Shown here: positions 1 to 46,788 of the stretch, piece after piece
How positions within the stretch are numbered: the first letter of the stretch is position 1
Layout of the letters: each line of letters opens with the position of its first letter
Program-made: the position numbers and the translations under genes
The notes under the pieces: model-generated
What the model saw: the letters and a program-made list of their open reading frames with translations, nothing else
What the model was told of the DNA's origin: nothing
Databases searched by the model: none
Assembly: GCA_050124775.1 (NCBI GenBank)
Contig: JASFEP010000001.1
Span: forward strand, 1-46,788
DNA length: 46,788 nt
Origin: Candidatus Aminicenantes bacterium
Lineage (GTDB): Bacteria; Acidobacteriota; Aminicenantia; Aminicenantales; Aminicenantaceae
Reading direction: 5' to 3'

Positions 1-109
1 ACGAAGGCTTTGTTGTGAGATCAATGCGCCCGAAGGGTAAAAGATGCTGACAATAAGGTATTGAATGATTTGGGAAAAATGAGGTCAGCAGATTTTACGA
101 ATAATCCAG
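1..109 (+). repeat. Copy A of the TIR-bounded structured repeat family, 5'-truncated by the window edge
   Basis: Aligns with copy B (16971-17094). It has the core acgaaggctttgttgtgagatc..cgcccgaagggtaaaagatgc, a hairpin at 39-96 (tgctgac/gtcagca, 32-nt AT-rich loop) and the 3' terminus ttttacgaataatccag. It ends 6 nt before ATG-116 and 21 nt before ATG-131, co-oriented with the kinase gene. Confidence 0.8.
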
Positions 110-130
110 TCATATATGAGGACTTGGACA

Positions 131-16797: not shown

Positions 16798-16872
16798 CGA
16801 ACTGGTGTATCGCTCTTTATGCGACTCACATAAATAAATCAGAAATTTCTGTCGAAATCAAGCTTTTCACTC

Positions 16873-17094
16873 CTGGAGTGCTCACGAGCTAAGGCCTCTC
16901 GATTCCTCCCATCCCAAAAGGCGAGGCAGTGGCCCTTGATGATGGTGTGAACTCCCTCGAAAGGGCTACAACGAAGGCTTTGGTGCGAGATCGGCTCGCC
17001 CGAAGGGTAAAAGATGCTAACATTAAGATAAAGAATTTTCCTTTATGTGGGTTCGTTGCTAAAAGTTTGTTAGCATCTTTTATGAATAATCCAG
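16873..17094 (+). repeat. Copy B (full length, 222 bp) of the TIR-bounded structured repeat family
   Basis: Degenerate 5' TIR ctggagtgctcacgag and 3' TIR ttttatgaataatccag. Core as in copies A, E2, D and C. A perfect 14-bp hairpin aaaagatgctaaca/tgttagcatctttt spans 17009-17081 with a 45-nt loop. The element ends 3 nt from the TAA stop (17098-17100) of the convergent OMP gene. Confidence 0.85.
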
Positions 17095-17097
17095 GAA

Positions 17098-18732: not shown

Positions 18733-18957
18733 CTACTCTTTTTTTGCCTTCCCTGCAGCCTTGCCAACCCATATGGTGGCAATGACGGCGATGATCGTAA
18801 CGACTACGGCATAGGTAAGCATAGGGCCTACGCCCTCGGCCGTTCCAAAAACCTGCTTAAAAATGGCTTGAATGGCCCCATTCCAGGCCAGGGCAGCGAC
18901 CAAACCGAATGCAGCCGTAACCAACGCAGCGATCTTTTCGATTATTTCTGACCTCAT
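18733..18957 (-). CDS. Small two-helix membrane protein (DUF5654-like)
   Basis: MRSEIIEKIAALVTAAFGLVAALAWNGAIQAIF... plus a second hydrophobic helix and a KAKKE tail. ATG-18957 has GAGGAGG 8 nt upstream. The track start at 18966 is GTG. Confidence 0.6.
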   Translation of the reverse strand: MRSEIIEKIAALVTAAFGLVAALAWNGAIQAIFKQVFGTAEGVGPMLTYAVVVTIIAVIATIWVGKAAGKAKKE

Positions 18958-18981
18958 CTTATCCACCTCCTCACAGATTAT

Positions 18982-19187
18982 CTGAGTTATTCATAAAAGT
19001 AGCTGACAGCTATTTTTACTAACACAATTTAATTTTTAATGTCAGCCTATTGCCTCGGAGGCGGACCGACTCACGCCAACACCTTCATTGGTGCCCATTT
19101 GATTGATCGCCCCACATCTTCATGGGTGACGGCTTCGACCTTTGTGAACGGGTGGGGTGGGTTGGCCTCGCTCCGTAAATAATCCAT
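18982..19187 (-). repeat. Copy C (full length, minus orientation) of the TIR-bounded structured repeat family
   Basis: In reverse complement it reads atggattatttacgg ... gaagccgtcacccatgaagatg ... hairpin gctgaca/tgtcagc ... cttttatgaataactcag. It is the most diverged copy. It sits between the NYN gene stop and the small membrane gene start, co-oriented with both. Confidence 0.75.
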
Positions 19188-19217
19188 CTATTCGCTGAAT
19201 TATATAAAAAGCAAAAA

Positions 19218-23077: not shown

Positions 23078-25342
23078 ATGGATAATTTCGCTCGTGCACT
23101 CCTAAGAAAAGTGACCGTTGCCCTCTTGGCGTCTGCGACTGCGCTGACCCTTTACTTCTACGGATATCAAGAACAAAAGGAGCTTCTTCCTCAGGAAAAA
23201 TATGAAGTCAAGGTCCGCCTTATCCTGGTCGATGTGATCGTCACCAAGGACGGCGAATTCGTGAAGGACCTCTCCAAAGAGGATTTCGAGCTCTATGAAG
23301 ACGGCCGGAGAGTGCCCATCAACTCCTTCGAGCTCATAAGCTTCGACCAGAGGGAATTGAACGTCCCCGAGGACATGAGCCCGCAAGACCGGTCCAAAAC
23401 TCCCAAAAAGAGGCTGGCTGTCGTCTTCGACAGCATCACCTCTTGGAAGAGGGAGATGAAACACGGCAGCACCCAGATCGTTGACGACCTTGTGTCTATC
23501 GTTAAACTCGGTCATGAGGTCATGATCCTGCAGCTCAATCCCGTAAAGGGGATCGAGATCATCCAACCCTTCACCACGAACGAGGACCTCATAAGGAATT
23601 CCGTCGAGAGGGCCTCAGGAAGCATCTGGAAACTGGAAACTCAGATCGAATCATCCCGCGTCGAAGAAACAGAGACTGAACTAGAAACCCAGGCACAGCC
23701 CGAAGCAGTGACCACGCCCAGTGAACGCACAGAGATCGAACAAGCTCTAGCCAGCACGTTCTTCGAAGATATGCAACGGATCGATTTTATACACAGAGAG
23801 AGACTGAGGTTTGAAAAAACTGTGGGAGGACTGCTAGCCGCATTCAACTTGATGAGAGGTTTCCCCGGAAGAAAATACATCCTCCTCGTGAGCGCGGGCA
23901 TCCCGGACCTCTCGCCTCCGGATATGTTTCCCAATATCCGGAGCGGAATACCGGGTGAAGAGATCGACCGCGCTTACATCAACAAAATCTGGGGCAAGAT
24001 GGAAGACATCCGGGTTTTCGATCCGTTCAACATCCTGGATAAAAACAACTTCAAAAACGGCGAGGAAGTGCTCCGGGAGATCATCGAATTCGCCAATGCT
24101 CAAAATATCTCCATTTATTCCTTCGACAGCAGCATTTTCGTAAAAAACATCTTTTCCGGAGCTTCAGCCGAACATTACCAGCAGAATGAAATGGATCATT
24201 TCAGGTTCCGCCAGGGAGACAAACTCAGAAAAATCCAGAACCTCCGGTGGCTATCCGAGGATACTGGGGCGGATTCATTGCGTGGTGCGAACAAACTGAC
24301 TGAATTCCAGAAGGTCATGGATACAGACTTGAATTATTATTACCAGCTGAGTTTTTATCCCCGCAGGGATGAAGCGGACGACCACTATCACGAAATCAAG
24401 GTCAAAGTGAAGCGGGATGGCGTGGACACCCGTTTCAGAAAGGGATATACCGACTACTCGGACAATGAGATGGACAAGATGGTCCTGGTGACCGCTTTTT
24501 ACAATCCCGAACTCTTCAAAGAGCTGCCTTTCGAGGGTGTACTTGTTCCCTTCGTTTCCGAATCCGGGAAATACGAGCCCTGGATGAATATCGCACTCCC
24601 CGTAAAGGAGATCATCGAGGACAGGTTTGTGGAGTATGCCCCAAAAGTTTTTCATCTCCACATCTGGCTGAAGGACAGAACCAGTGGAGAAAAAGGCTTT
24701 GGCGGCAAGATCAACATCGGCTTGAATTTGAGCCCCAAGTTCATGGAATTCATCCAAAATATCGATTACCTCAGCTATCATTTCAAGGGGCCGGAGATCG
24801 AATTCCGGAACAAGGAATACCAGAGTGTGTTCGCTCTCTTCGACCCTCAAACGAGCGAGATCGGCACCTGGGATACCCACGTTCGTTTTCCCGCCATCGA
24901 AGAGATAGATGAACACGTTATCATAAACTGCGTTCTTGGTGACCTGACGGAAAATCCAGAAAAAGAAAAAAAGAGATTTCTCCTATCCAAAAAAGATGGA
25001 GGGCTGATCTGCGGCGAGCACAAATTCTATCCCAAAGTGACCAACCAATTCGATAGATGGGGTGAAGCTTCCGTCTTTGTGCAGGCCCACTTCCCCGAGG
25101 GAAAAAAGAGCCTTCAACCCGAATTCTACTCCAGGAACACAGAGATGCGTGTCAATCCCATAGAGGGAGAGCTGGTGGTCGATTCATGGAACACAAAGAC
25201 CAAGATCTGGAGCGGCCTCTACAAACTCGATTTCAGCCCCTGTTCTCTCGGCGACAATTCGCTTTTCGTTGAATTTTCTGGGTCCGATGTTGGGTCTGAG
25301 CTTTATTTGAGTAGGGAACTCAAGATGTCCATCATCCGCTGA
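23078..25342 (+). CDS. Large secreted or anchored VWA-domain protein with an N-terminal 'VWFA-related acidobacterial' type domain
   Basis: VKVRLILVDVIVTKDGEFVKDLSKEDFELYEDGRRVPINSFEL resembles the TIGR03436-type N-domain, followed by a VWA-like RLAVVFDSITS... block. ATG-23078 has AAGGTG upstream and is followed by a TM/signal segment. The track start is TTG. Confidence 0.65.
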   Translation: MDNFARALLRKVTVALLASATALTLYFYGYQEQKELLPQEKYEVKVRLILVDVIVTKDGEFVKDLSKEDFELYEDGRRVPINSFELISFDQRELNVPEDMSPQDRSKTPKKRLAVVFDSITSWKREMKHGSTQIVDDLVSIVKLGHEVMILQLNPVKGIEIIQPFTTNEDLIRNSVERASGSIWKLETQIESSRVEETETELETQAQPEAVTTPSERTEIEQALASTFFEDMQRIDFIHRERLRFEKTVGGLLAAFNLMRGFPGRKYILLVSAGIPDLSPPDMFPNIRSGIPGEEIDRAYINKIWGKMEDIRVFDPFNILDKNNFKNGEEVLREIIEFANAQNISIYSFDSSIFVKNIFSGASAEHYQQNEMDHFRFRQGDKLRKIQNLRWLSEDTGADSLRGANKLTEFQKVMDTDLNYYYQLSFYPRRDEADDHYHEIKVKVKRDGVDTRFRKGYTDYSDNEMDKMVLVTAFYNPELFKELPFEGVLVPFVSESGKYEPWMNIALPVKEIIEDRFVEYAPKVFHLHIWLKDRTSGEKGFGGKINIGLNLSPKFMEFIQNIDYLSYHFKGPEIEFRNKEYQSVFALFDPQTSEIGTWDTHVRFPAIEEIDEHVIINCVLGDLTENPEKEKKRFLLSKKDGGLICGEHKFYPKVTNQFDRWGEASVFVQAHFPEGKKSLQPEFYSRNTEMRVNPIEGELVVDSWNTKTKIWSGLYKLDFSPCSLGDNSLFVEFSGSDVGSELYLSRELKMSIIR

Positions 25343-25534
25343 GATGATTTATTTGTAAAAACCGTCGATACCATCTATTAATACACTTATCGTTTTAATA
25401 ACTATCGGCATTTTTTACCTAAAGGCGAGTCGATCTCACCACAAAGCTTTCGTTGCAACTCACTCGCGGTAGTCCGCTACAGCTTCATGAGCCACTTCCT
25501 CACCGCTACTGCAACCTTGGTCCGAGAATAATCC
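25339..25534 (-). repeat. Copy D (minus orientation) of the TIR-bounded structured repeat family
   Basis: In reverse complement it reads ggattattctcgg...ggtgaggaagtggctcatgaagctg...acgaaagctttgtggtgagatcgactcgcc...hairpin ccgata/tatcg(a)cgg...tttttacaaataaatcatctcag. Its last 4 nt (tcag) are the complement of cTGA, which includes the stop of the convergent VWA gene (25340-25342). Confidence 0.8.
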
Positions 25535-25558
25535 TTTTTTTTATCTAACTGAGGTGGA

Positions 25559-30054: not shown

Positions 30055-30122
30055 CAGCGCACTCTCTTCTGACTACAGATGACCGGGTAATCGATTCTCC
30101 CTGACAGTAACGGAGAATAAAT

Positions 30123-30150
30123 GGGGCCTCGAAAGAGGCCCTTTTTTTTT
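30123..30150 (+). terminator. Rho-independent terminator of the ECF/DUF4097 operon
   Basis: GC stem gggcctc-gaaa-gaggccc followed by nine T. The T-run continues directly into a repeat-family 3' end fragment. Confidence 0.85.
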
Positions 30151-30224
30151 ATGAATGATTCATCTCACAGATGGATTATTCATTTAAATTTGGCAGCAGA
30201 TTTTATGAATGATTCATCTCACAG
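30147..30224 (+). repeat. Two head-to-tail repeat-family fragments: E0 (3' end only, 30147-30170) and E1 (54-bp mini-element, 30171-30224)
   Basis: E0 reads ttttatgaatgattcatctcacag. E1 is atggattattca joined to tttaaatttggcagcagattttatgaatgattcatctcacag. 39 nt of E1 are identical to the 3' end of E2 (30384-30422). Confidence 0.8.
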
Positions 30225-30423
30225 ATGGATTATTCACGAGTCGAGCTCGCTGCAGATGCAAGGCGTCGGCCCGTGAAGACGTGGTCGTCCACTTCGAAGG
30301 GGCCGCAACGAAGCAGATGCGGTGAGATCGGCTCGCCTGAAAGGGAAAAGATGCTGCCAATTCGATGAGAAAAGGTTTTAGAGTTTAAATTTGGCAGCAG
30401 ATTTTATGAATGATTCATCTCAG
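30225..30423 (+). repeat. Copy E2 (full length) of the TIR-bounded structured repeat family
   Basis: atggattattcacgag ... ggcgtcggcccgtgaagacg ... acgaagcagatgcggtgagatcggctcgcc ... hairpin 30346-30405 (tgctgccaa/ttggcagca, 30-nt loop) ... ttttatgaatgattcatctcag. The terminal tca (30420-30422) is the complement of the TGA stop of the convergent oxidoreductase gene. Confidence 0.85.
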
Positions 30424-33400
30424 GTGCGGCCCCGGAGATAATCCACCATCTTAGGCACAGCCAGAGGAACCAGATCGGGAAGCATGTGGGGCATCAGGTT
30501 GTCCATCACCTTGGGCATCATATCCGGCATTTGCTCTTCCATATAATCGGGCATCGGGACCCGGTCTGCCACCCGCGATAGCATCGTGGGCATTACCTTG
30601 GGCATCATCCCGGGGAGCAGTTTGGGGAAAAGGATCGGGAACACAGGCTTCATGAGTGCGAACATCGCATCCCCCACAAACCCCATCTTTCCGATGATAC
30701 GCATCATCTTTCCCATCCCCATGGGCATGGCATCCAGCATCTCGGGCCACATGGTATCCATCAATTCAGCGAATCCTTTGGGCGTCATGAGGTCTATCAT
30801 TCCTTCGAACACGGCCCATTGTTTGGTGACTTCGGGGCTGGGGTCCTCGAACTCTTTACCGAGCCCTTTACAGGCAAACGCGGCCAGGTCTCCGATCTCG
30901 ACGGGAACATTTTTTTTGTCTTTCGTCACTCTGAGCTGAAATTCACAGCAAGGACACAGGCCCAAAACCGTTTCGGCATTGACATCCACAGCTTCGGACA
31001 GTCGGGATTCTCCGATATCCGCGGCGATTGGGGGTTCTTTGATCAGGGTGAGAACGCTTCCGCAACAGTGGCCCTCTTCGCGGTTGTGGGCCATCTCTTC
31101 GAATTCGACTCCGGGGATGGCCCTGATCAATTCCCTGGGTTCTTCATATACACCGGAAACGCGCCCGATATGGCAGGAATCGTGCCAGGTGACCTTTTTG
31201 TTTATGGGGTGTGTAAATTCAAATTCCCCGCTTTTGATCTTTTCGGCCACCACTTCGCTGTAATGTTTGGCTGTAATGTTGTATTCCATCCCCAGTTTCT
31301 TGGCCCAGTCGGCATAGGTGTGCCTCCACATCATGTCGCAGGCCGGACAGGATGAGATCACGGTGTCGGCACCGATGGACTTAACAGCCTCGATGTTCTT
31401 TCTCATGATCGTCTCGAATGTATCCCACTTTCCGGCAACGAGCATGGGCGTTCCGCAGCAATTCTCTATGTTTCCGAGATAAGAAAAATCGATACCCGCG
31501 GCATCGAGAAGAGTGGCGGTGGCCTTGCCGATGTCATTCTCCACATAAGAGGCTGTACATCCCACAAAATAGGCGTTCTTGCTCTTGGTGCCGGGTCCGT
31601 GTTTTTCCTTGAGCTCTTGGGGGAACCAATCGGAGCGGTTTTTCCTGTAACCTGCCCAGATGTTCCCCTCGGCATTGAGGGCCGCATCCATCATCTCGAA
31701 GGGGGGAAAGGTCATCTTTTTGTCTTCATGGATGAGTTTGCCGCGGAGTTTCATCCAGGAGGGTTCGATGGGAAGGGCAGCCGAACAGCGGAGATTGCAG
31801 AACTCACACGTGGTGCACACGATCATAGTGTCCACCATGAACTGGTTCCATTCCTCCCGGCCTTCCATGTATTCTCTTAGCCAATACCACTTTCCTCGCG
31901 GCGATTGGCTCTCCCAACCGCGGCCGAAGAACTGGTCGCACTCGTCGAGACAGTACCCGCACTGGGAGCACCCGTACGCATACCAGGCCACATCGGGAGG
32001 GATACCGCGGACCGGTTTTTCGAACCGTTCTCCGACTTTGGTGACCACGCTGTTACCGAAGGGCCGTGCCAGGGGCTCGAAGATTCCGAAAAATTTCACG
32101 GCTCTGGAAACAAGATTTCCTGCCATAACTTTGGCCGGATTCAGAACCTTTCTGGGATCGACCTTCTTTTTAAGGGCTTTGAGTCTCTGTGTGCGGTCTT
32201 TCCCCATGATGCTTTCGATCTTGGTGGTGAAATACAATCCTGTTGAGTAAGGGCGCCCGCCATGTTTTTTAGCGATCTTCATGATCGTCAGCACGAGCCC
32301 GAACACAAAATTGTAGGAGAACTTTCTCTGGTCGCTGGGAATAAATCCGAGGATGACGACCTCGGGTTGCCCATCCTGTCCCTTTTTAATGATAACACCT
32401 TCCTTGACGACCGGTTGGTTCACCTTGTCTTCGATCTCCTCCATCACATTTCCCAGCTTGTCGAGGGGAACGACAACTTCTGCGGGAACGAGAGAAGGCC
32501 CCAGCCTTTTTACGATCATGAGTTTGAACCTGTTATCCCATTCATGGTCAGCGATTTCCTGCTTGAGGATCTCGCCTTCGCAGCGCTTCACGATCTCAGA
32601 CAATTTGGGAACGATCTTGTCCCTGTCGGCCTCGCGGAAGGCGATCGTCGCGATATAAGCGGCCGGCAGAATAACCTTATGCTCGACAGGATGACCGAGG
32701 TGTGTCATCACAGGAGCCCGGTTTTTCATCTCGGCCATTCGGGGATTGATAAAAACAAGGGACCAGATCGGAAGGTCCTGCTCGATGAACTCCGCGAAGA
32801 TCCGCGAGAGTTTATGGGCATCTGGGCAGGCGATGGCCGCAACGCCGATATCGGACAACTTCTGGAGCCGGATGGTCATCTGACTGATAAAGCCCGTGGT
32901 GCCTTCGGCGTCAGCGATCATGTCCAGCTCATCTCCGGAATACTCTTTGACCGATCCATCGGGACGAACGACTCTGGCGCTCTCCACATTTTCCGAGAAC
33001 CAGCCATACTCGTAGGATCCGAGCCCCGCACCTCCTTGAGCCAGCCATCCGCCGGCCGAAGAGGACGGATAGCTTGTGGGATAAAGCCTGAGCGTCAATC
33101 CTTCGGGCTTGATTTTCTTATCGAGTTGCTCCCAGGTAATACCGGGCTGGACAGTGACTTTTTCTTCGTCTTTGTCTACGGAAACAACGTCCTTCATCCG
33201 GTAAAAATCGACAACGATCCCCTTTCGGGCCGGAATGATCCCGCCGTATCCAGACGATCCCTTTCCCCGAGGTGTCAGAGGGATCCTGTGTTCATTCGCC
33301 CAAAGGATCAACTCTATGAGTTCTTCTTCGCTCTGTGGCTGAACGACAGCATCGGGTACGGTATTTCCGATCAGCGGCTTAAAAACGCTGGCAATCGCCG

Positions 33401-36184: not shown

Positions 36185-36264
36185 CTTACAGTTTCTCCTG
36201 AAATGAAAGTCAATCGACCTTAAGAATTGTATACAAATAAAAAGGCACTGTCACCTTTTAAATC

Positions 36265-36351
36265 CGAATTATTCACGGGCCGATATCGCAGCAAAGGTGA
36301 GGCAGTGGCCCCTGAAGATGGTGTGAACTCCCTTTTTTATGAATAATTCAG
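36265..36351 (+). repeat. Copy F (87-bp internally deleted derivative) of the TIR-bounded repeat family
   Basis: cgaattattcacggg...ggtgaggcagtggcccctgaagatggtgtgaactccc is near-identical to copy B 16917-16954 (2 mismatches) and is joined directly to ttttttatgaataattcag. The terminal tca (36348-36350) is the complement of the GT2 gene's TGA stop. Confidence 0.8.
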
Positions 36352-37115
36352 TAGGGGAAGATCCGTTCGCCCTTCTTCCATATCTCCTTCAACTTCGCAT
36401 AACGGACGAACACGGAGTAACCGTGAAGAGTCGCTACCACAAAACCCGCAAAGCCATCCAGGATCCCCGCTCTCCAGATATAGGACTTGAAGAAGTTCAG
36501 AAAGGGGACGACTGCCAGATGATACCAGCGGCATTTTTTCTTTTTTGCATACAATTTTTGCGCGCCCAGGTCAGAAAAGGTATTGATGCGCTCCAGATGA
36601 TCCCGGATACTCCGGTAGGTGAAATGATGAAGGGATCCCTTGAGAGGAACGACCTTTCCTTGGATGACCAGGGATTCGTGTATGTACTCTCCCTCCCAGC
36701 GGGCGCTCGACTTCCGGAAGAGCCGCAGTTTTCTGTCCGGATACCAGCCACCGTGACGGATCCATCGGCCCAGGTAGTATGTCTGTCGCGGCATCGTGAA
36801 ACCGGAACATTCCGGTTCCCCCTCTTTGAGCGCGATGATCTCTTCCTTGAGCTCGGGGGAAACCCTCTCATCGGCATCTAGAGAGAGAATCCAGGGATAG
36901 GATGTTTTGCTGTTCCCGAAATTTTTCTGGTCGGCAAAATTGGTCCATTTTCTCTGGAAAACAAGGTCCGTATATTTTTTTGCGACCTTTACCGTATCGT
37001 CGTCGCTGAAACGGTCGACCACTACGATCTCGGAGGCGATATCGGCGACGCTTTTGAGAGCCGCCTCCAGCCTTCTCTCTTCGTTGTAGGTTATGATAAC
37101 AACAGAGACATCCAT
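36348..37115 (-). CDS. Family-2 glycosyltransferase
   Basis: VSVVIITYNEERRL, VVVDRFSDDDT and LSLDADERV (DxD) match GT-A/GT2. ATG-37115 is used because the track start is GTG-37124. Confidence 0.85.
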   Translation of the reverse strand: MDVSVVIITYNEERRLEAALKSVADIASEIVVVDRFSDDDTVKVAKKYTDLVFQRKWTNFADQKNFGNSKTSYPWILSLDADERVSPELKEEIIALKEGEPECSGFTMPRQTYYLGRWIRHGGWYPDRKLRLFRKSSARWEGEYIHESLVIQGKVVPLKGSLHHFTYRSIRDHLERINTFSDLGAQKLYAKKKKCRWYHLAVVPFLNFFKSYIWRAGILDGFAGFVVATLHGYSVFVRYAKLKEIWKKGERIFPY

Positions 37116-37223
37116 TGTATTCACTATATCATAAAGGCAACCCTCAACTCCATAATTCTCGCAGCAATGGGGGGGCAGCTTGTGGGATTGGCCTTGCGTT
37201 TAAAGGGTTATCTGATCAGGAGG

Positions 37224-45607: not shown

Positions 45608-46615
45608 CTAGCCGATCTTGCGGGGGTAGGCGTTCAGGCCGAGGTCTAAAGACGTTTTCTTTTGATAAACGACTTTCTCCATAGCCAGGGCTGCAACCAT
45701 GACCGCATTATCCGTGCAAAATTCAGGCGAGGGAATATAGGCAGGAAGGCGGACATTGCGGCCGAGTTTCTGAAACGCGTTTCTCAAGGCATTGTTCCTT
45801 GCCACCCCTCCGCAGAGGATCAGCGAACGGGGTTTGTGAACCTTTATGGATCGGGACATGTTGGACAGCAACGCCCGGATGATAGCCTGTTGAAAGCTCG
45901 CCAAAAGATCGGCGAACTTCGGATGGCCTTTGGAAATCTTGGTCTCTTTGATGAGTCTGAGCGCCGCTGTTTTCAGACCGCTGAAACTGAAATCCATACT
46001 CCCATCGGTCATGTGAGGAATGGCAAAGGCAAATTCTTCGGGATCGCCCTTTGCCCCCAGTTTCTCGATGACCGGGCCTCCCGGATAATCCAGGTCGAGA
46101 AATTTGGCGATCTTATCCAGCGCCTCTCCGGCCGCATCATCCCGTGTTCTTCCGATCTCGTGGAAAGTCAGTTTTTCCTTAAGCAGGAAGATCGACGTGT
46201 GTCCGCCAGACACGAGAAGGGCTAGTGCAGGAAACGCGATCTCTTTATTTTCGATGAATGCCGATTCCACATGGGCTTCAAGGTGGTCTATGGGGATCAA
46301 CGGTTTATCAAAGCTGTAGGCCAGGCCTTTAGCGAAAGAGAGTCCGACAAGCAGCGACCCGATGAGCCCCGGCCCCTGGGTGACGGCGTAGGCGTCGATA
46401 TCCTCGAGAGAGAGACGGGCCCTGGAAAGGCTTTCCTCGACGACATAAGTGATCGACTCTATGTGCTGCCGTGATGCCAGTTCGGGGACAATGCCCCCGT
46501 AGGGCGCATGGATCTCGTCTTGCGACAAAACAATACTGCTCAGGATCTCCATGCTGTCAGCCAACACAGCTGCAGAGGTCTCATCGCAGGAGGTCTCGAT
46601 GCCCAAGATCTTCAT
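45608..46615 (-). CDS. tsaD: tRNA N6-adenosine threonylcarbamoyltransferase
   Basis: MKILGIETSCDETSAAV, HLEAH, SGGHT and GGVARN are characteristic Kae1/TsaD blocks. Confidence 0.95.
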   Translation of the reverse strand: MKILGIETSCDETSAAVLADSMEILSSIVLSQDEIHAPYGGIVPELASRQHIESITYVVEESLSRARLSLEDIDAYAVTQGPGLIGSLLVGLSFAKGLAYSFDKPLIPIDHLEAHVESAFIENKEIAFPALALLVSGGHTSIFLLKEKLTFHEIGRTRDDAAGEALDKIAKFLDLDYPGGPVIEKLGAKGDPEEFAFAIPHMTDGSMDFSFSGLKTAALRLIKETKISKGHPKFADLLASFQQAIIRALLSNMSRSIKVHKPRSLILCGGVARNNALRNAFQKLGRNVRLPAYIPSPEFCTDNAVMVAALAMEKVVYQKKTSLDLGLNAYPRKIG

Positions 46616-46668
46616 GCTTCATCCTTTGTGTTATTCCTCTTCGGTTAACTCGTGGGTCTGACCCGGCA

Positions 46669-46788
46669 TGAAAAGGGAGACAGACTCCGTTATCAAAATG
46701 GGGACTGGCTCCATTATCAAAATGGGGACTGGCTCCGCTGTCAAAATGGGGACTGGCTCCGCTGTCAAAATGGGGACTGGCTCCGAAA
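46669..46788. repeat. 24-bp head-to-tail tandem repeat, at least 5 units, truncated by the window end
   Basis: Unit tcaaaatggggactggctccgctg starts at 46693, 46717, 46741 and 46765. Unit-to-unit differences fall only in the last 4 nt. A degenerate unit (17/24) lies at 46669-46692. The array begins 54 nt upstream of the tsaD ATG. Confidence 0.9.

Follow-up and report, generated by a model that had tools for sequence, protein, structure and literature searches.

The 46,788-nt stretch of DNA analysed here (the window), which is of metagenomic origin, contains copies of a short intergenic element that we find in well over 100 places across ~35 Aminicenantes/Acidobacteriota MAGs. The element is non-coding, multi-copy and bounded by terminal inverted repeats (TIRs), carries a 4-bp duplication of consensus YTAR at its insertion site and differs in occupancy from lineage to lineage; together these properties show it to be a MITE moved in trans. 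From the target-site duplication (TSD) we infer that the mobilizing enzyme would be a DDE transposase with IS5-like target choice. The sense strand of the element is predicted to form a four-way junction, for which compensatory changes are seen in two independent alignments. Our overall reading, which we hold with a probability of about 0.75, is that these are DDE-type MITEs, moved in trans and inserted at YTAR, in which the fold is kept only in the source lineage, preferably as the leader of a parent mRNA.

Copies within the window

Copies B, C, D and E2 were used to build an nhmmer profile, which recovers from the window four full copies (16862–17097 and 30214–30430 on the plus strand, 18970–19199 and 25326–25544 on the minus strand; E-values 1e-53 to 1e-60) and four partial copies, with no other significant match. 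The partial matches include copy F (36257–36333, E 6e-14) and two short pieces just upstream of E2 (30181–30221 and 30102–30168). These are exactly the eight intergenic copies and fragments that a first-pass annotation had listed from the letters of the window, and refinement shifts their boundaries by a few bases only (Table 1). All of them lie between ORFs. The window's own copies are old, with no recognizable TSDs, and pairwise identity among the full copies is only ~60–70%.

The copies differ in condition. E2 folds by itself into the canonical four-way junction (−89.1 kcal/mol, z −8.9), and the RNA fold of the degraded copy B scores −79.1 kcal/mol (z −3.6). The short E0 piece is fused to a canonical terminator hairpin at 30123–30142. 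As had been noted on first inspection, the window encodes no transposase or integrase; none of 30 window proteins has such a domain, and metabolic, regulatory and envelope domains are found instead.

Table 1. Copies, fragments and subfeatures of the element in the 46,788-nt window
Feature	Coordinates	Strand	Description	Evidence
Copy A	1–111	+	3' two-thirds of the element, cut by the window edge	nhmmer E 8e-21, alignment
Copy B	16872–17095	+	full length, degraded, 224 nt	nhmmer E 1e-55
Left TIR of B	16872–16884	+	CCTGGAGTGCTCA, degenerate relative to the family consensus CCTGGATTATTCA	
Structured core of B	16885–17008	+	helices P2–P6	RNAalifold, pair counts
P7 hairpin of B	17009–17081	+	arms 17009–17022 AAAAGATGCTAACA and 17068–17081 TGTTAGCATCTTTT; loop variable	
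Right TIR of B	17083–17095	+	TGAATAATCCAGG	
Copy C	18981–19188	−	full length, 208 nt	nhmmer E 3e-54
3'-end-like fragment	19189–19210	−	TTTTTATATAATTCAG plus 6 nt, immediately adjoining copy C at its 5' end	
Copy D	25343–25537	−	full length, 195 nt	nhmmer E 3e-53
E0	30143–30167	+	solo 3' end: T-run plus ATGAATGATTCATCTCA	
E1	30168–30221	+	internally deleted: 15 nt left at the 5' end, 39 nt at the 3' end	
E2	30222–30422	+	best-preserved window copy	nhmmer E 3e-60
F	36263–36351	+	internally deleted: the 5' ~71 nt run directly into the final 18 nt	

An abundant family in Aminicenantes

Searched for in one genome per species, an IUPAC pattern for the core block with the highest conservation matches more than 112 stretches; those listed are nearly all in MAGs named Candidatus Aminicenantes, Aminicenantaceae or Acidobacteriota, and some are in assemblies auto-labelled "uncultured Eubacteriales". 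The lone Alphaproteobacteria match among those listed (L068) lacks profile support and is put down to chance, and the core pattern has no match in viral contigs. Profile searches of ~830 kb of collected Aminicenantes DNA return 180 nhmmer matches, 100 of which run end to end, and the early suggestion of a probable genome-wide family is borne out by both counts.

The family comprises two length classes of ~195 nt and ~254 nt (units span 192–304 nt), the ~60-nt difference between them being located in the variable loop of the P7 hairpin. In some MAGs, copies at different loci are 94–96.5% identical and flanked by perfect TSDs; such near-identity within a genome indicates that the family has been recently active in some lineages. 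A fragment of the 3' end sits a few bases before a full copy in ~20 of 71 copies, as it does in the E0/E1/E2 arrangement of the window. Abutted ends and tandems of this sort fit either insertion beside resident ends or tandem-dimer intermediates that subsequently suffered deletion. Complete tandem copies are found at L110 and L038; at L116 and L069, the repeated piece takes in flanking sequence.

Terminal inverted repeats and a 4-bp target-site duplication

Alignment of ~100 full copies together with their flanks defines the ends of the element as TIRs of 13–15 bp, CCTGGATTATTCA...TGAATAATYCAGG. A second subfamily ends in RATGGATT...AATYCATY, its two ends covarying with each other. The inverted termini and the colinear internal blocks that had been proposed from the window copies are both seen in this alignment.

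Of 81 copies, 21 have the same 4-mer on either side, compared to a mean of 3.9 when right flanks are shuffled among copies (maximum 13 in 5000 trials), and 45/81 match at three or more of the four bases; a control window shifted by 4 nt gives identity in a single copy of the 81. The duplicated 4-mers are mostly CTAA, TTAA, TTAG and CTAG, corresponding to a YTAR consensus. A duplication of fixed length that is matched copy by copy, in combination with inverted repeats, points to staggered-cut (DDE-type) transposition. The initial description of a MITE-like, non-autonomous, multi-copy TIR family is supported by these data, which add the 4-bp YTAR duplication to it.

IS5 of E. coli has an identical insertion signature, a 4-bp TSD with the consensus 5'-YTAR-3' (PMC5009759), and the element behaves like IS5 in its choice of target. 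We do not claim membership of the IS5 family: the IS5 TIRs (GGAAGGTGCGAA..., GGAAGGTGCGAAYAAG) are dissimilar and unrelated to the element end CCTGGATTATTCA, and a tblastn search with E. coli InsH against all Aminicenantes loci detects no homologue (nothing better than E=1).

Coding capacity and database comparisons

The absence of any reading frame conserved between copies, remarked upon in the first-pass annotation, extends to the family at large. Column variability has no 3-base periodicity (p=0.74), hardly any gap in the core has a length divisible by three, and full-length copies outside the window share no conserved ORF. The antisense strand has a frame without stops over a median of 56 codons. 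This frame lacks a start codon and periodicity, indels interrupt it, and its openness is put down to shared descent. A 39-codon frame starting at an AUG in P7 is open in 14/44 long copies, versus 1/44 in other frames; its peptides are not conserved and we call no gene.

Rfam 15 gives no match to the element, nor to any part of the window at gathering thresholds. Permissive Rfam scans return only miRNA/sRNA hairpin look-alikes far below threshold, and the HEARO and IS605-orfB models do not match. Two assignments suggested by eye were rejected: a hammerhead (CUGANGA/GAAA-like motifs), in which the C3 position is not conserved and for which Rfam is negative, and domain V of a group II intron, which is not present. 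A search of the literature on Aminicenantes in combination with structured RNA or MITEs found nothing relevant.

The sense strand folds into a four-way junction

RNAalifold predicts 54 pairs from an alignment of 31 short-class copies, the four from the window among them. The two TIRs pair with each other to form P1 (95.5% paired), from which the remaining helices of the four-way junction follow in order. P2, an 8-bp helix (CGAGUCGA/UCGGCUCG in the family consensus), leads into an irregular arm of ~100 nt (P2–P5) that has conserved purine-rich internal loops and ends in a GUAG-UGAA-CUAC hairpin cap; the irregular arm is followed by P6, a small CCC-GAA-GGG hairpin, and by P7, a long hairpin with a hypervariable loop. 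The best-conserved bases of the element (AACGAAG, GAGG and GUGAGAUC) sit in the internal loops.

An independent count over the short-class alignment finds 93.8% of cells paired. Double changes that keep pairing are present at 31 of the 54 pairs, compared to 19±2 in column shuffles (0/500 shuffles reach 31) and 8–16 in controls where the partners were slid by 1–3 columns; covariation scores 0.376 with the predicted partners and no more than 0.097 after sliding. The same core fold emerges from 48 long-class copies that share no member with the first set, with pair swaps that include CG:23/GC:17, GC:22/CG:21 and CG:16/UA:16/GC:15.

The fold belongs to one strand. Paired columns hold 173 G–U-type cells versus 26 of the A–C type, the alifold energies of the two alignments are −52.4 and −56.6 kcal/mol in the forward direction versus −25.7 and −22.5 kcal/mol on the opposite strand (the reverse complement), and 76 of 79 individual copies fold more stably as the sense strand. 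The "long hairpin" that the first reading had placed in the interior corresponds to P7 and is the only helix that avoids G–U pairs; the covariation-supported, strand-specific fold had been missed. The twelve pairs of P7 change almost exclusively by Watson–Crick to Watson–Crick swaps with essentially no G–U, which suggests that pairing of P7 is required on both strands or in DNA form. P7 has A4/T4–6 tracts on both sides, like a bidirectional terminator, and loops of 30–90 nt; a terminator scan does not call it.

Private mutations, those confined to single copies, behave differently from the changes that separate subfamilies. They fall on paired and unpaired columns alike (in A2, the short-class alignment, 0.52 versus 0.51 per column), pairing is lost in 42/56 cases in A2 and 18/40 in the long-class alignment (A3), and private transitions yield 7 G–U outcomes versus 9 A–C. 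Being blind to pairing, they indicate that inserted copies decay as neutral DNA, whereas the compensatory, G–U-biased changes lie between subfamilies and so place the constraint in the lineages that generate new copies, on the transposing lineage and not on the host. Such a pattern speaks against a host function at each locus and in favour of a constraint linked to propagation or to an autonomous source element.

Genomic context and occupancy at orthologous loci

None of 99 full copies lies inside an ORF. With a convergent gene downstream, the 3' end of the element lies at a median of 0 nt from the stop codon (29/35 within 30 nt), and four of the window copies end at stop codons in this manner: the 3' end of B is 2 nt from the stop codon of an OMP gene, D directly abuts the TGA (25340–25342) of a 789-aa gene, E2 overlaps the stop codon of a 1029-aa FAD/CCG oxidoreductase gene and F abuts that of a glycosyltransferase gene (36348–37124, minus strand). 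Where the downstream gene is co-oriented, its start falls within 30 nt of the 3' end in 22/54 cases, often as CAGG-TTAGGAGG...ATG; divergent gene starts are within 30 nt of the 5' end in only 6/47 (odds ratio 4.7, p=0.002). In the window, copy A ends ~5 nt before the ATG of a PAS/histidine-kinase ORF at 116, and copy C ends 23 nt short of the ATG of a conserved 74-aa gene (18733–18957, minus strand). The YTAR consensus includes TAA and TAG, and ribosome-binding regions of the TAAGGAGG type contain it as well; the choice of target, combined with purifying selection, may thus be why copies lie at stop codons and just upstream of Shine–Dalgarno sites, and may account for the orientation bias only partly.

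Loci orthologous to the 17–19-kb region of the window were collected via the OMP protein. At the site of copy C (between an NYN gene and the 74-aa gene), the window and L116 have a short-class copy abutting the Shine–Dalgarno site, L117 and L118 have a long-class copy ~22 nt further upstream with flanks TAAG and (G/T)AAG, and L120 is without any copy; the C-site copies are independent insertions of different subfamilies into one spacer. At the site of copy B, downstream of the OMP gene, the element is present in the window, L117 and L115 and absent from L116, L118, L119 and L120. A member of a different repeat family occupies the B site in L116, L118 and L119, and L120 has neither. The spacer upstream of a 205-aa gene is free of the element in the window and L116 and holds different remnants of it in L117, L118 and L121, and at the place where L020 has a full copy L047 retains only 27 nt of the 3' end. 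Presence at orthologous loci, for which a comparison of empty and filled sites had been proposed, thus varies among relatives; a clean empty site with a single YTAR was not found, all polymorphic sites in this set being complicated by other sequence. Look-ups with exact proteins for strain-level empty sites returned the same strain only, with identical spacing, one contig breaking at the repeat.

The fold and the context together raise the possibility that the copies are dispersed functional structured RNAs (trans-acting sRNAs, protein-binding RNAs or mobile cis-regulatory leaders), each of use to its host, with the TIR-like ends serving as a closing helix. In favour of such RNAs are strong and strand-specific covariation, maximal conservation in internal loops, the closeness of 3' ends to co-oriented starts relative to 5' ends and divergent ones, and the retention of some copies at orthologous sites across species (the C site, and copy D, for which an orthologous copy is present in locus L108). 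We nevertheless regard this explanation as improbable. A gene family does not produce a sequence-matched 4-bp duplication, the neighbouring genes are unrelated and occur in all four orientation classes, private mutations break pairs at the neutral rate without a G–U bias, and many copies are truncated, nested or tandem; furthermore, a promoter/terminator consensus scan identifies no conserved promoter-like site in or before the element. A riboswitch or cis-regulatory leader in particular was rejected, the copies having neither constant position and orientation nor a coherent gene set.

Selection of structure on one strand, and only in the propagating lineage, could also reflect a single-stranded intermediate, either ssDNA (an IS200/IS605-type PATE mobilized by a Y1/HUH transposase) or RNA (a SINE-like retroposon), with the fold being what the enzyme recognizes. 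Fragments of the element lend this some colour: 3'-only pieces outnumber 5'-only pieces 36 to 11 (p=3e-4) with many different truncation points, an asymmetry that a symmetric TIR mechanism does not predict, and a 51-nt 3' fragment in L051 is absent from the orthologous site in L077. Some of the "3'-only" matches are, however, complete palindromic mini-elements of the form TIR-P7-TIR, which have two TIRs and inflate the asymmetry. Retroposition would give duplications of variable length and usually a 3' tail, neither of which is seen, and no reverse transcriptase or HUH gene is seen near any copy. IS200/IS605 elements have no TIRs and do not duplicate their target, whereas this element has both TIRs and a fixed 4-bp duplication with a consensus. 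The same holds for HEARO/omega-RNA (IscB/TnpB), which resembles the element in being a highly structured RNA of ~200 nt, multi-copy and mobile, with many copies lacking a protein gene, and which is represented in Rfam; HEARO/omega-RNA elements belong to IS200/IS605-type transposons and are without TIRs or TSDs, in contrast to the element described here, which has both and matches no Rfam model. The TIRs and the duplicated 4-mer on both sides rule out an IS200/IS605-derived PATE/omega-RNA element, and we consider a single-stranded intermediate of either kind very improbable.

Maintenance as REP/REPIN- or BIME-like extragenic palindromes by a domesticated RAYT transposase can be dismissed: the element is intergenic, very abundant, hairpin-forming and often at gene ends, as these palindromes are, but its units are of 195–255 nt with a branched fold instead of GC-rich palindromes of 20–40 nt, it has the TIRs and TSDs that REPs lack, and no RAYT-like gene is seen, so that its initial separation from REP, ERIC, Correia, BOX and RUP repeats holds.

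Proposed source of the element and role of the fold

In the mechanism that we favour, a transposase encoded elsewhere would recognize the 13–15-bp TIRs, insert the element at YTAR and duplicate 4 bp, and the fold would be selected only in the lineage giving rise to new copies, which would then decay neutrally once inserted. Less confidently, we infer that the P2–P6 core may serve an unseen autonomous parent as the 5' untranslated leader of its transposase mRNA. P6 contains a Shine–Dalgarno-like GAAGGG and an AUG lies at the foot of P7, 6 or 7 bases later; the MITEs would have arisen via loss of the ORF within the P7 loop.

The ~830 kb of Aminicenantes DNA yielded neither an autonomous element with these TIRs nor a transposase resembling that of IS5. 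Within this collection neither TIR pairs spaced 0.7–3 kb apart nor 5'-only matches followed by an ORF reveal a parent, and clustering of ORFs across loci groups only syntenic housekeeping genes and ABC permeases. A parental leader calls for repeated deletions at the same place or for a parent with its ORF between the P7 arms, neither of which is observed, and a cut-and-paste DDE mechanism gives a strand-specific fold no reason; the latter counts against what is otherwise the best explanation.

Alternatively, the fold may be an RNA required in cis for efficient mobilization. That the sense-strand fold is a functional RNA module needed for spread, and not a relic, is in our estimation unlikely, if worth keeping in mind. 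The RNA would then recruit, guide or regulate the trans-acting DDE transposase; in another form of the proposal, the element would be transcribed in cis and, via the Shine–Dalgarno-like P6 and the P7 AUG, translated, making its insertion tolerated. Selection on one strand and only in the propagating lineage, conservation of bases in loops and the fact that no leader-bearing parent was seen are all compatible with an RNA module. The two proposals differ in consequence: an RNA module would make this a DDE-type MITE with propagation dependent on RNA structure, whereas a fold that is only the parent's leader would leave an ordinary, though well-documented, MITE. The testable question is whether a DDE-type transposon or MITE needs RNA structure, be it as leader, regulator or cofactor, in order to propagate.

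Relationship to known elements

The closest analogue of the Aminicenantes element is bcr1 of the Bacillus cereus group (Okstad 2004; Klevan 2007), which has an RNA fold kept by compensatory changes, is flanked by 5-bp direct repeats and is transcribed (PMC3184786). Both are MITE-like, non-coding, multi-copy and intergenic, with a size of ~150–250 bp; short direct repeats flank the insertions of both, and neither keeps its distribution from one relative to the next; and in both, compensatory changes keep a fold at the RNA level while single copies lose stability over time. The two come from different phyla and have no sequence relationship. They differ also in architecture, bcr1 having a two-hairpin "cruciform-like" fold between its 5-bp repeats and the Aminicenantes element a 4-bp YTAR duplication, clear TIRs of 13–15 bp and a four-way junction with an irregular arm of ~100 nt.

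MITEs with an IS partner (Nezha/ISNpu3, Chunjie, Correia/nemis, ERIC and RUP) have TIRs, TSDs and hairpins and insert at gene ends or in operons (PMC3184786). The Aminicenantes element resembles them in its small size, TIRs, TSDs, high copy number and stable predicted hairpins. In classical MITEs, however, the hairpin forms essentially by pairing of one half of the element with the other, whereas here only 13–15 bp of the ends pair in this way and the remainder is covarying local structure. The duplication is likewise of a different length (4 bp, versus 9 bp in Chunjie), and classical MITEs have a partner IS where none is known for this element.

The initial claim of novelty consequently stands in part. 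No Rfam family matches, but the kind was already known, bcr1 having RNA structure maintained by compensatory change (PMC3184786); the element is a new family of an already known kind, in a phylum without an earlier described example. What distinguishes it is an unusually elaborate and well-supported fold, in which selection in the source lineage can be separated from the neutrality of the copies. For the uncultured Aminicenantes, it provides a defined, abundant repeat that breaks short-read assemblies, shapes gene ends and offers possible strain markers.

A C-rich sequence is present in two of the window copies, after P2 in copy B and as GGGTGGGGTGGGTTGG in copy C (plus strand, 19150–19165). 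Across the family, this C-rich 16–17-mer is found inside copies only, at three different helices and in both orientations, and it differs between orthologous copies.

A reading frame in long-class copies

In copies of the long class (~254 nt), one reading frame begins within the 5′ arm of P7, the long variable-loop hairpin, at an AUG and closes at a TAA or TAG within the right TIR (for example at locus L048, 5441–5693). This frame runs without stops over 39 codons in 14 of the 44 long-class copies (1/44 for each of the other two frames), and GAAGGG lies 6–7 nt upstream of it. Comparison of the resulting peptides between subfamilies revealed no conservation.

Genomic context and host range

Element copy C sits in the upstream region of a 74-aa gene that is kept in loci L116–L120 at 79–96% identity. 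The DUF4097 gene ends with an intrinsic terminator, within whose T-run E0, the solo 3′ end of the element, begins. A short-read contig from the same strain (Logan SRR11696579, locus L134) ends 122 nt past the DUF4097 gene, at window position ~30176, within the cluster formed by E0, E1 and E2; evidently, assemblies are broken by these repeats.

The element is restricted to Aminicenantes apart from CP070751.1, a 5.16-Mb chromosome labeled “Thermoplasmata archaeon” that bears a full copy (L015, 2189–2443); the label or binning of this entry looks doubtful.

Coordinates of features in the window and in related loci (L handles)
Feature	Location	Strand	Remark
74-aa gene	window 18733–18957	−	below 80-aa ORF cut-off
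C-rich 16–17-mer	window 19150–19165		within copy C
Canonical intrinsic terminator	window 30123–30150		GGGGCCTC-GAAA-GAGGCCC + T9
24-nt unit GTCAAAATGGGGACTGGCTCCGCT	window 46668–46787		five copies head-to-tail, reaching window edge
Second interspersed repeat family	L118 7056–7395		~200–340 nt; same spacer as window copy B
Third element	L069 1342–1757		416 nt; 25-bp TIRs TGAAATTCAGATATGGCCTGTGCTC
Element mini-variants	L118 5244–5412; L095 3272–3441; L089 160–174

Variation within the element and other repeats

Some mini-variants of the element are palindromes comprising TIR, P7 hairpin and TIR, and one is a TIR-only remnant of 15 bp (CCTGAATAATCCAGG) flanked by CTAA and TTAA. A C-rich 16–17-mer (CCAACCCACCCCACCC or CCGACCCAACCTAACCC), whose opposite strand is G-quadruplex-like, recurs in L117, L023, L044, L074, L077 and other loci; 19 of its 20 motif matches lie within element copies, where it is found at three helices and in either orientation. 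Orthologous copies differ in its presence or absence.

The third element is nested within a copy of the MITE-like family, and L130 and L131 carry sequence related to it. The second interspersed family, unrelated to the MITE-like element and without a copy in the 46,788-nt window, occupies the OMP–peptidase spacer of some relatives and has 70–98% copies in at least ten loci besides L118 (L119, L049, L077, L056, L115, L083, L008, L025, L096 and L035). The 24-nt array, which likewise bears no relation to the MITE-like element, lies upstream of the TsaD gene (45608–46615, minus strand).
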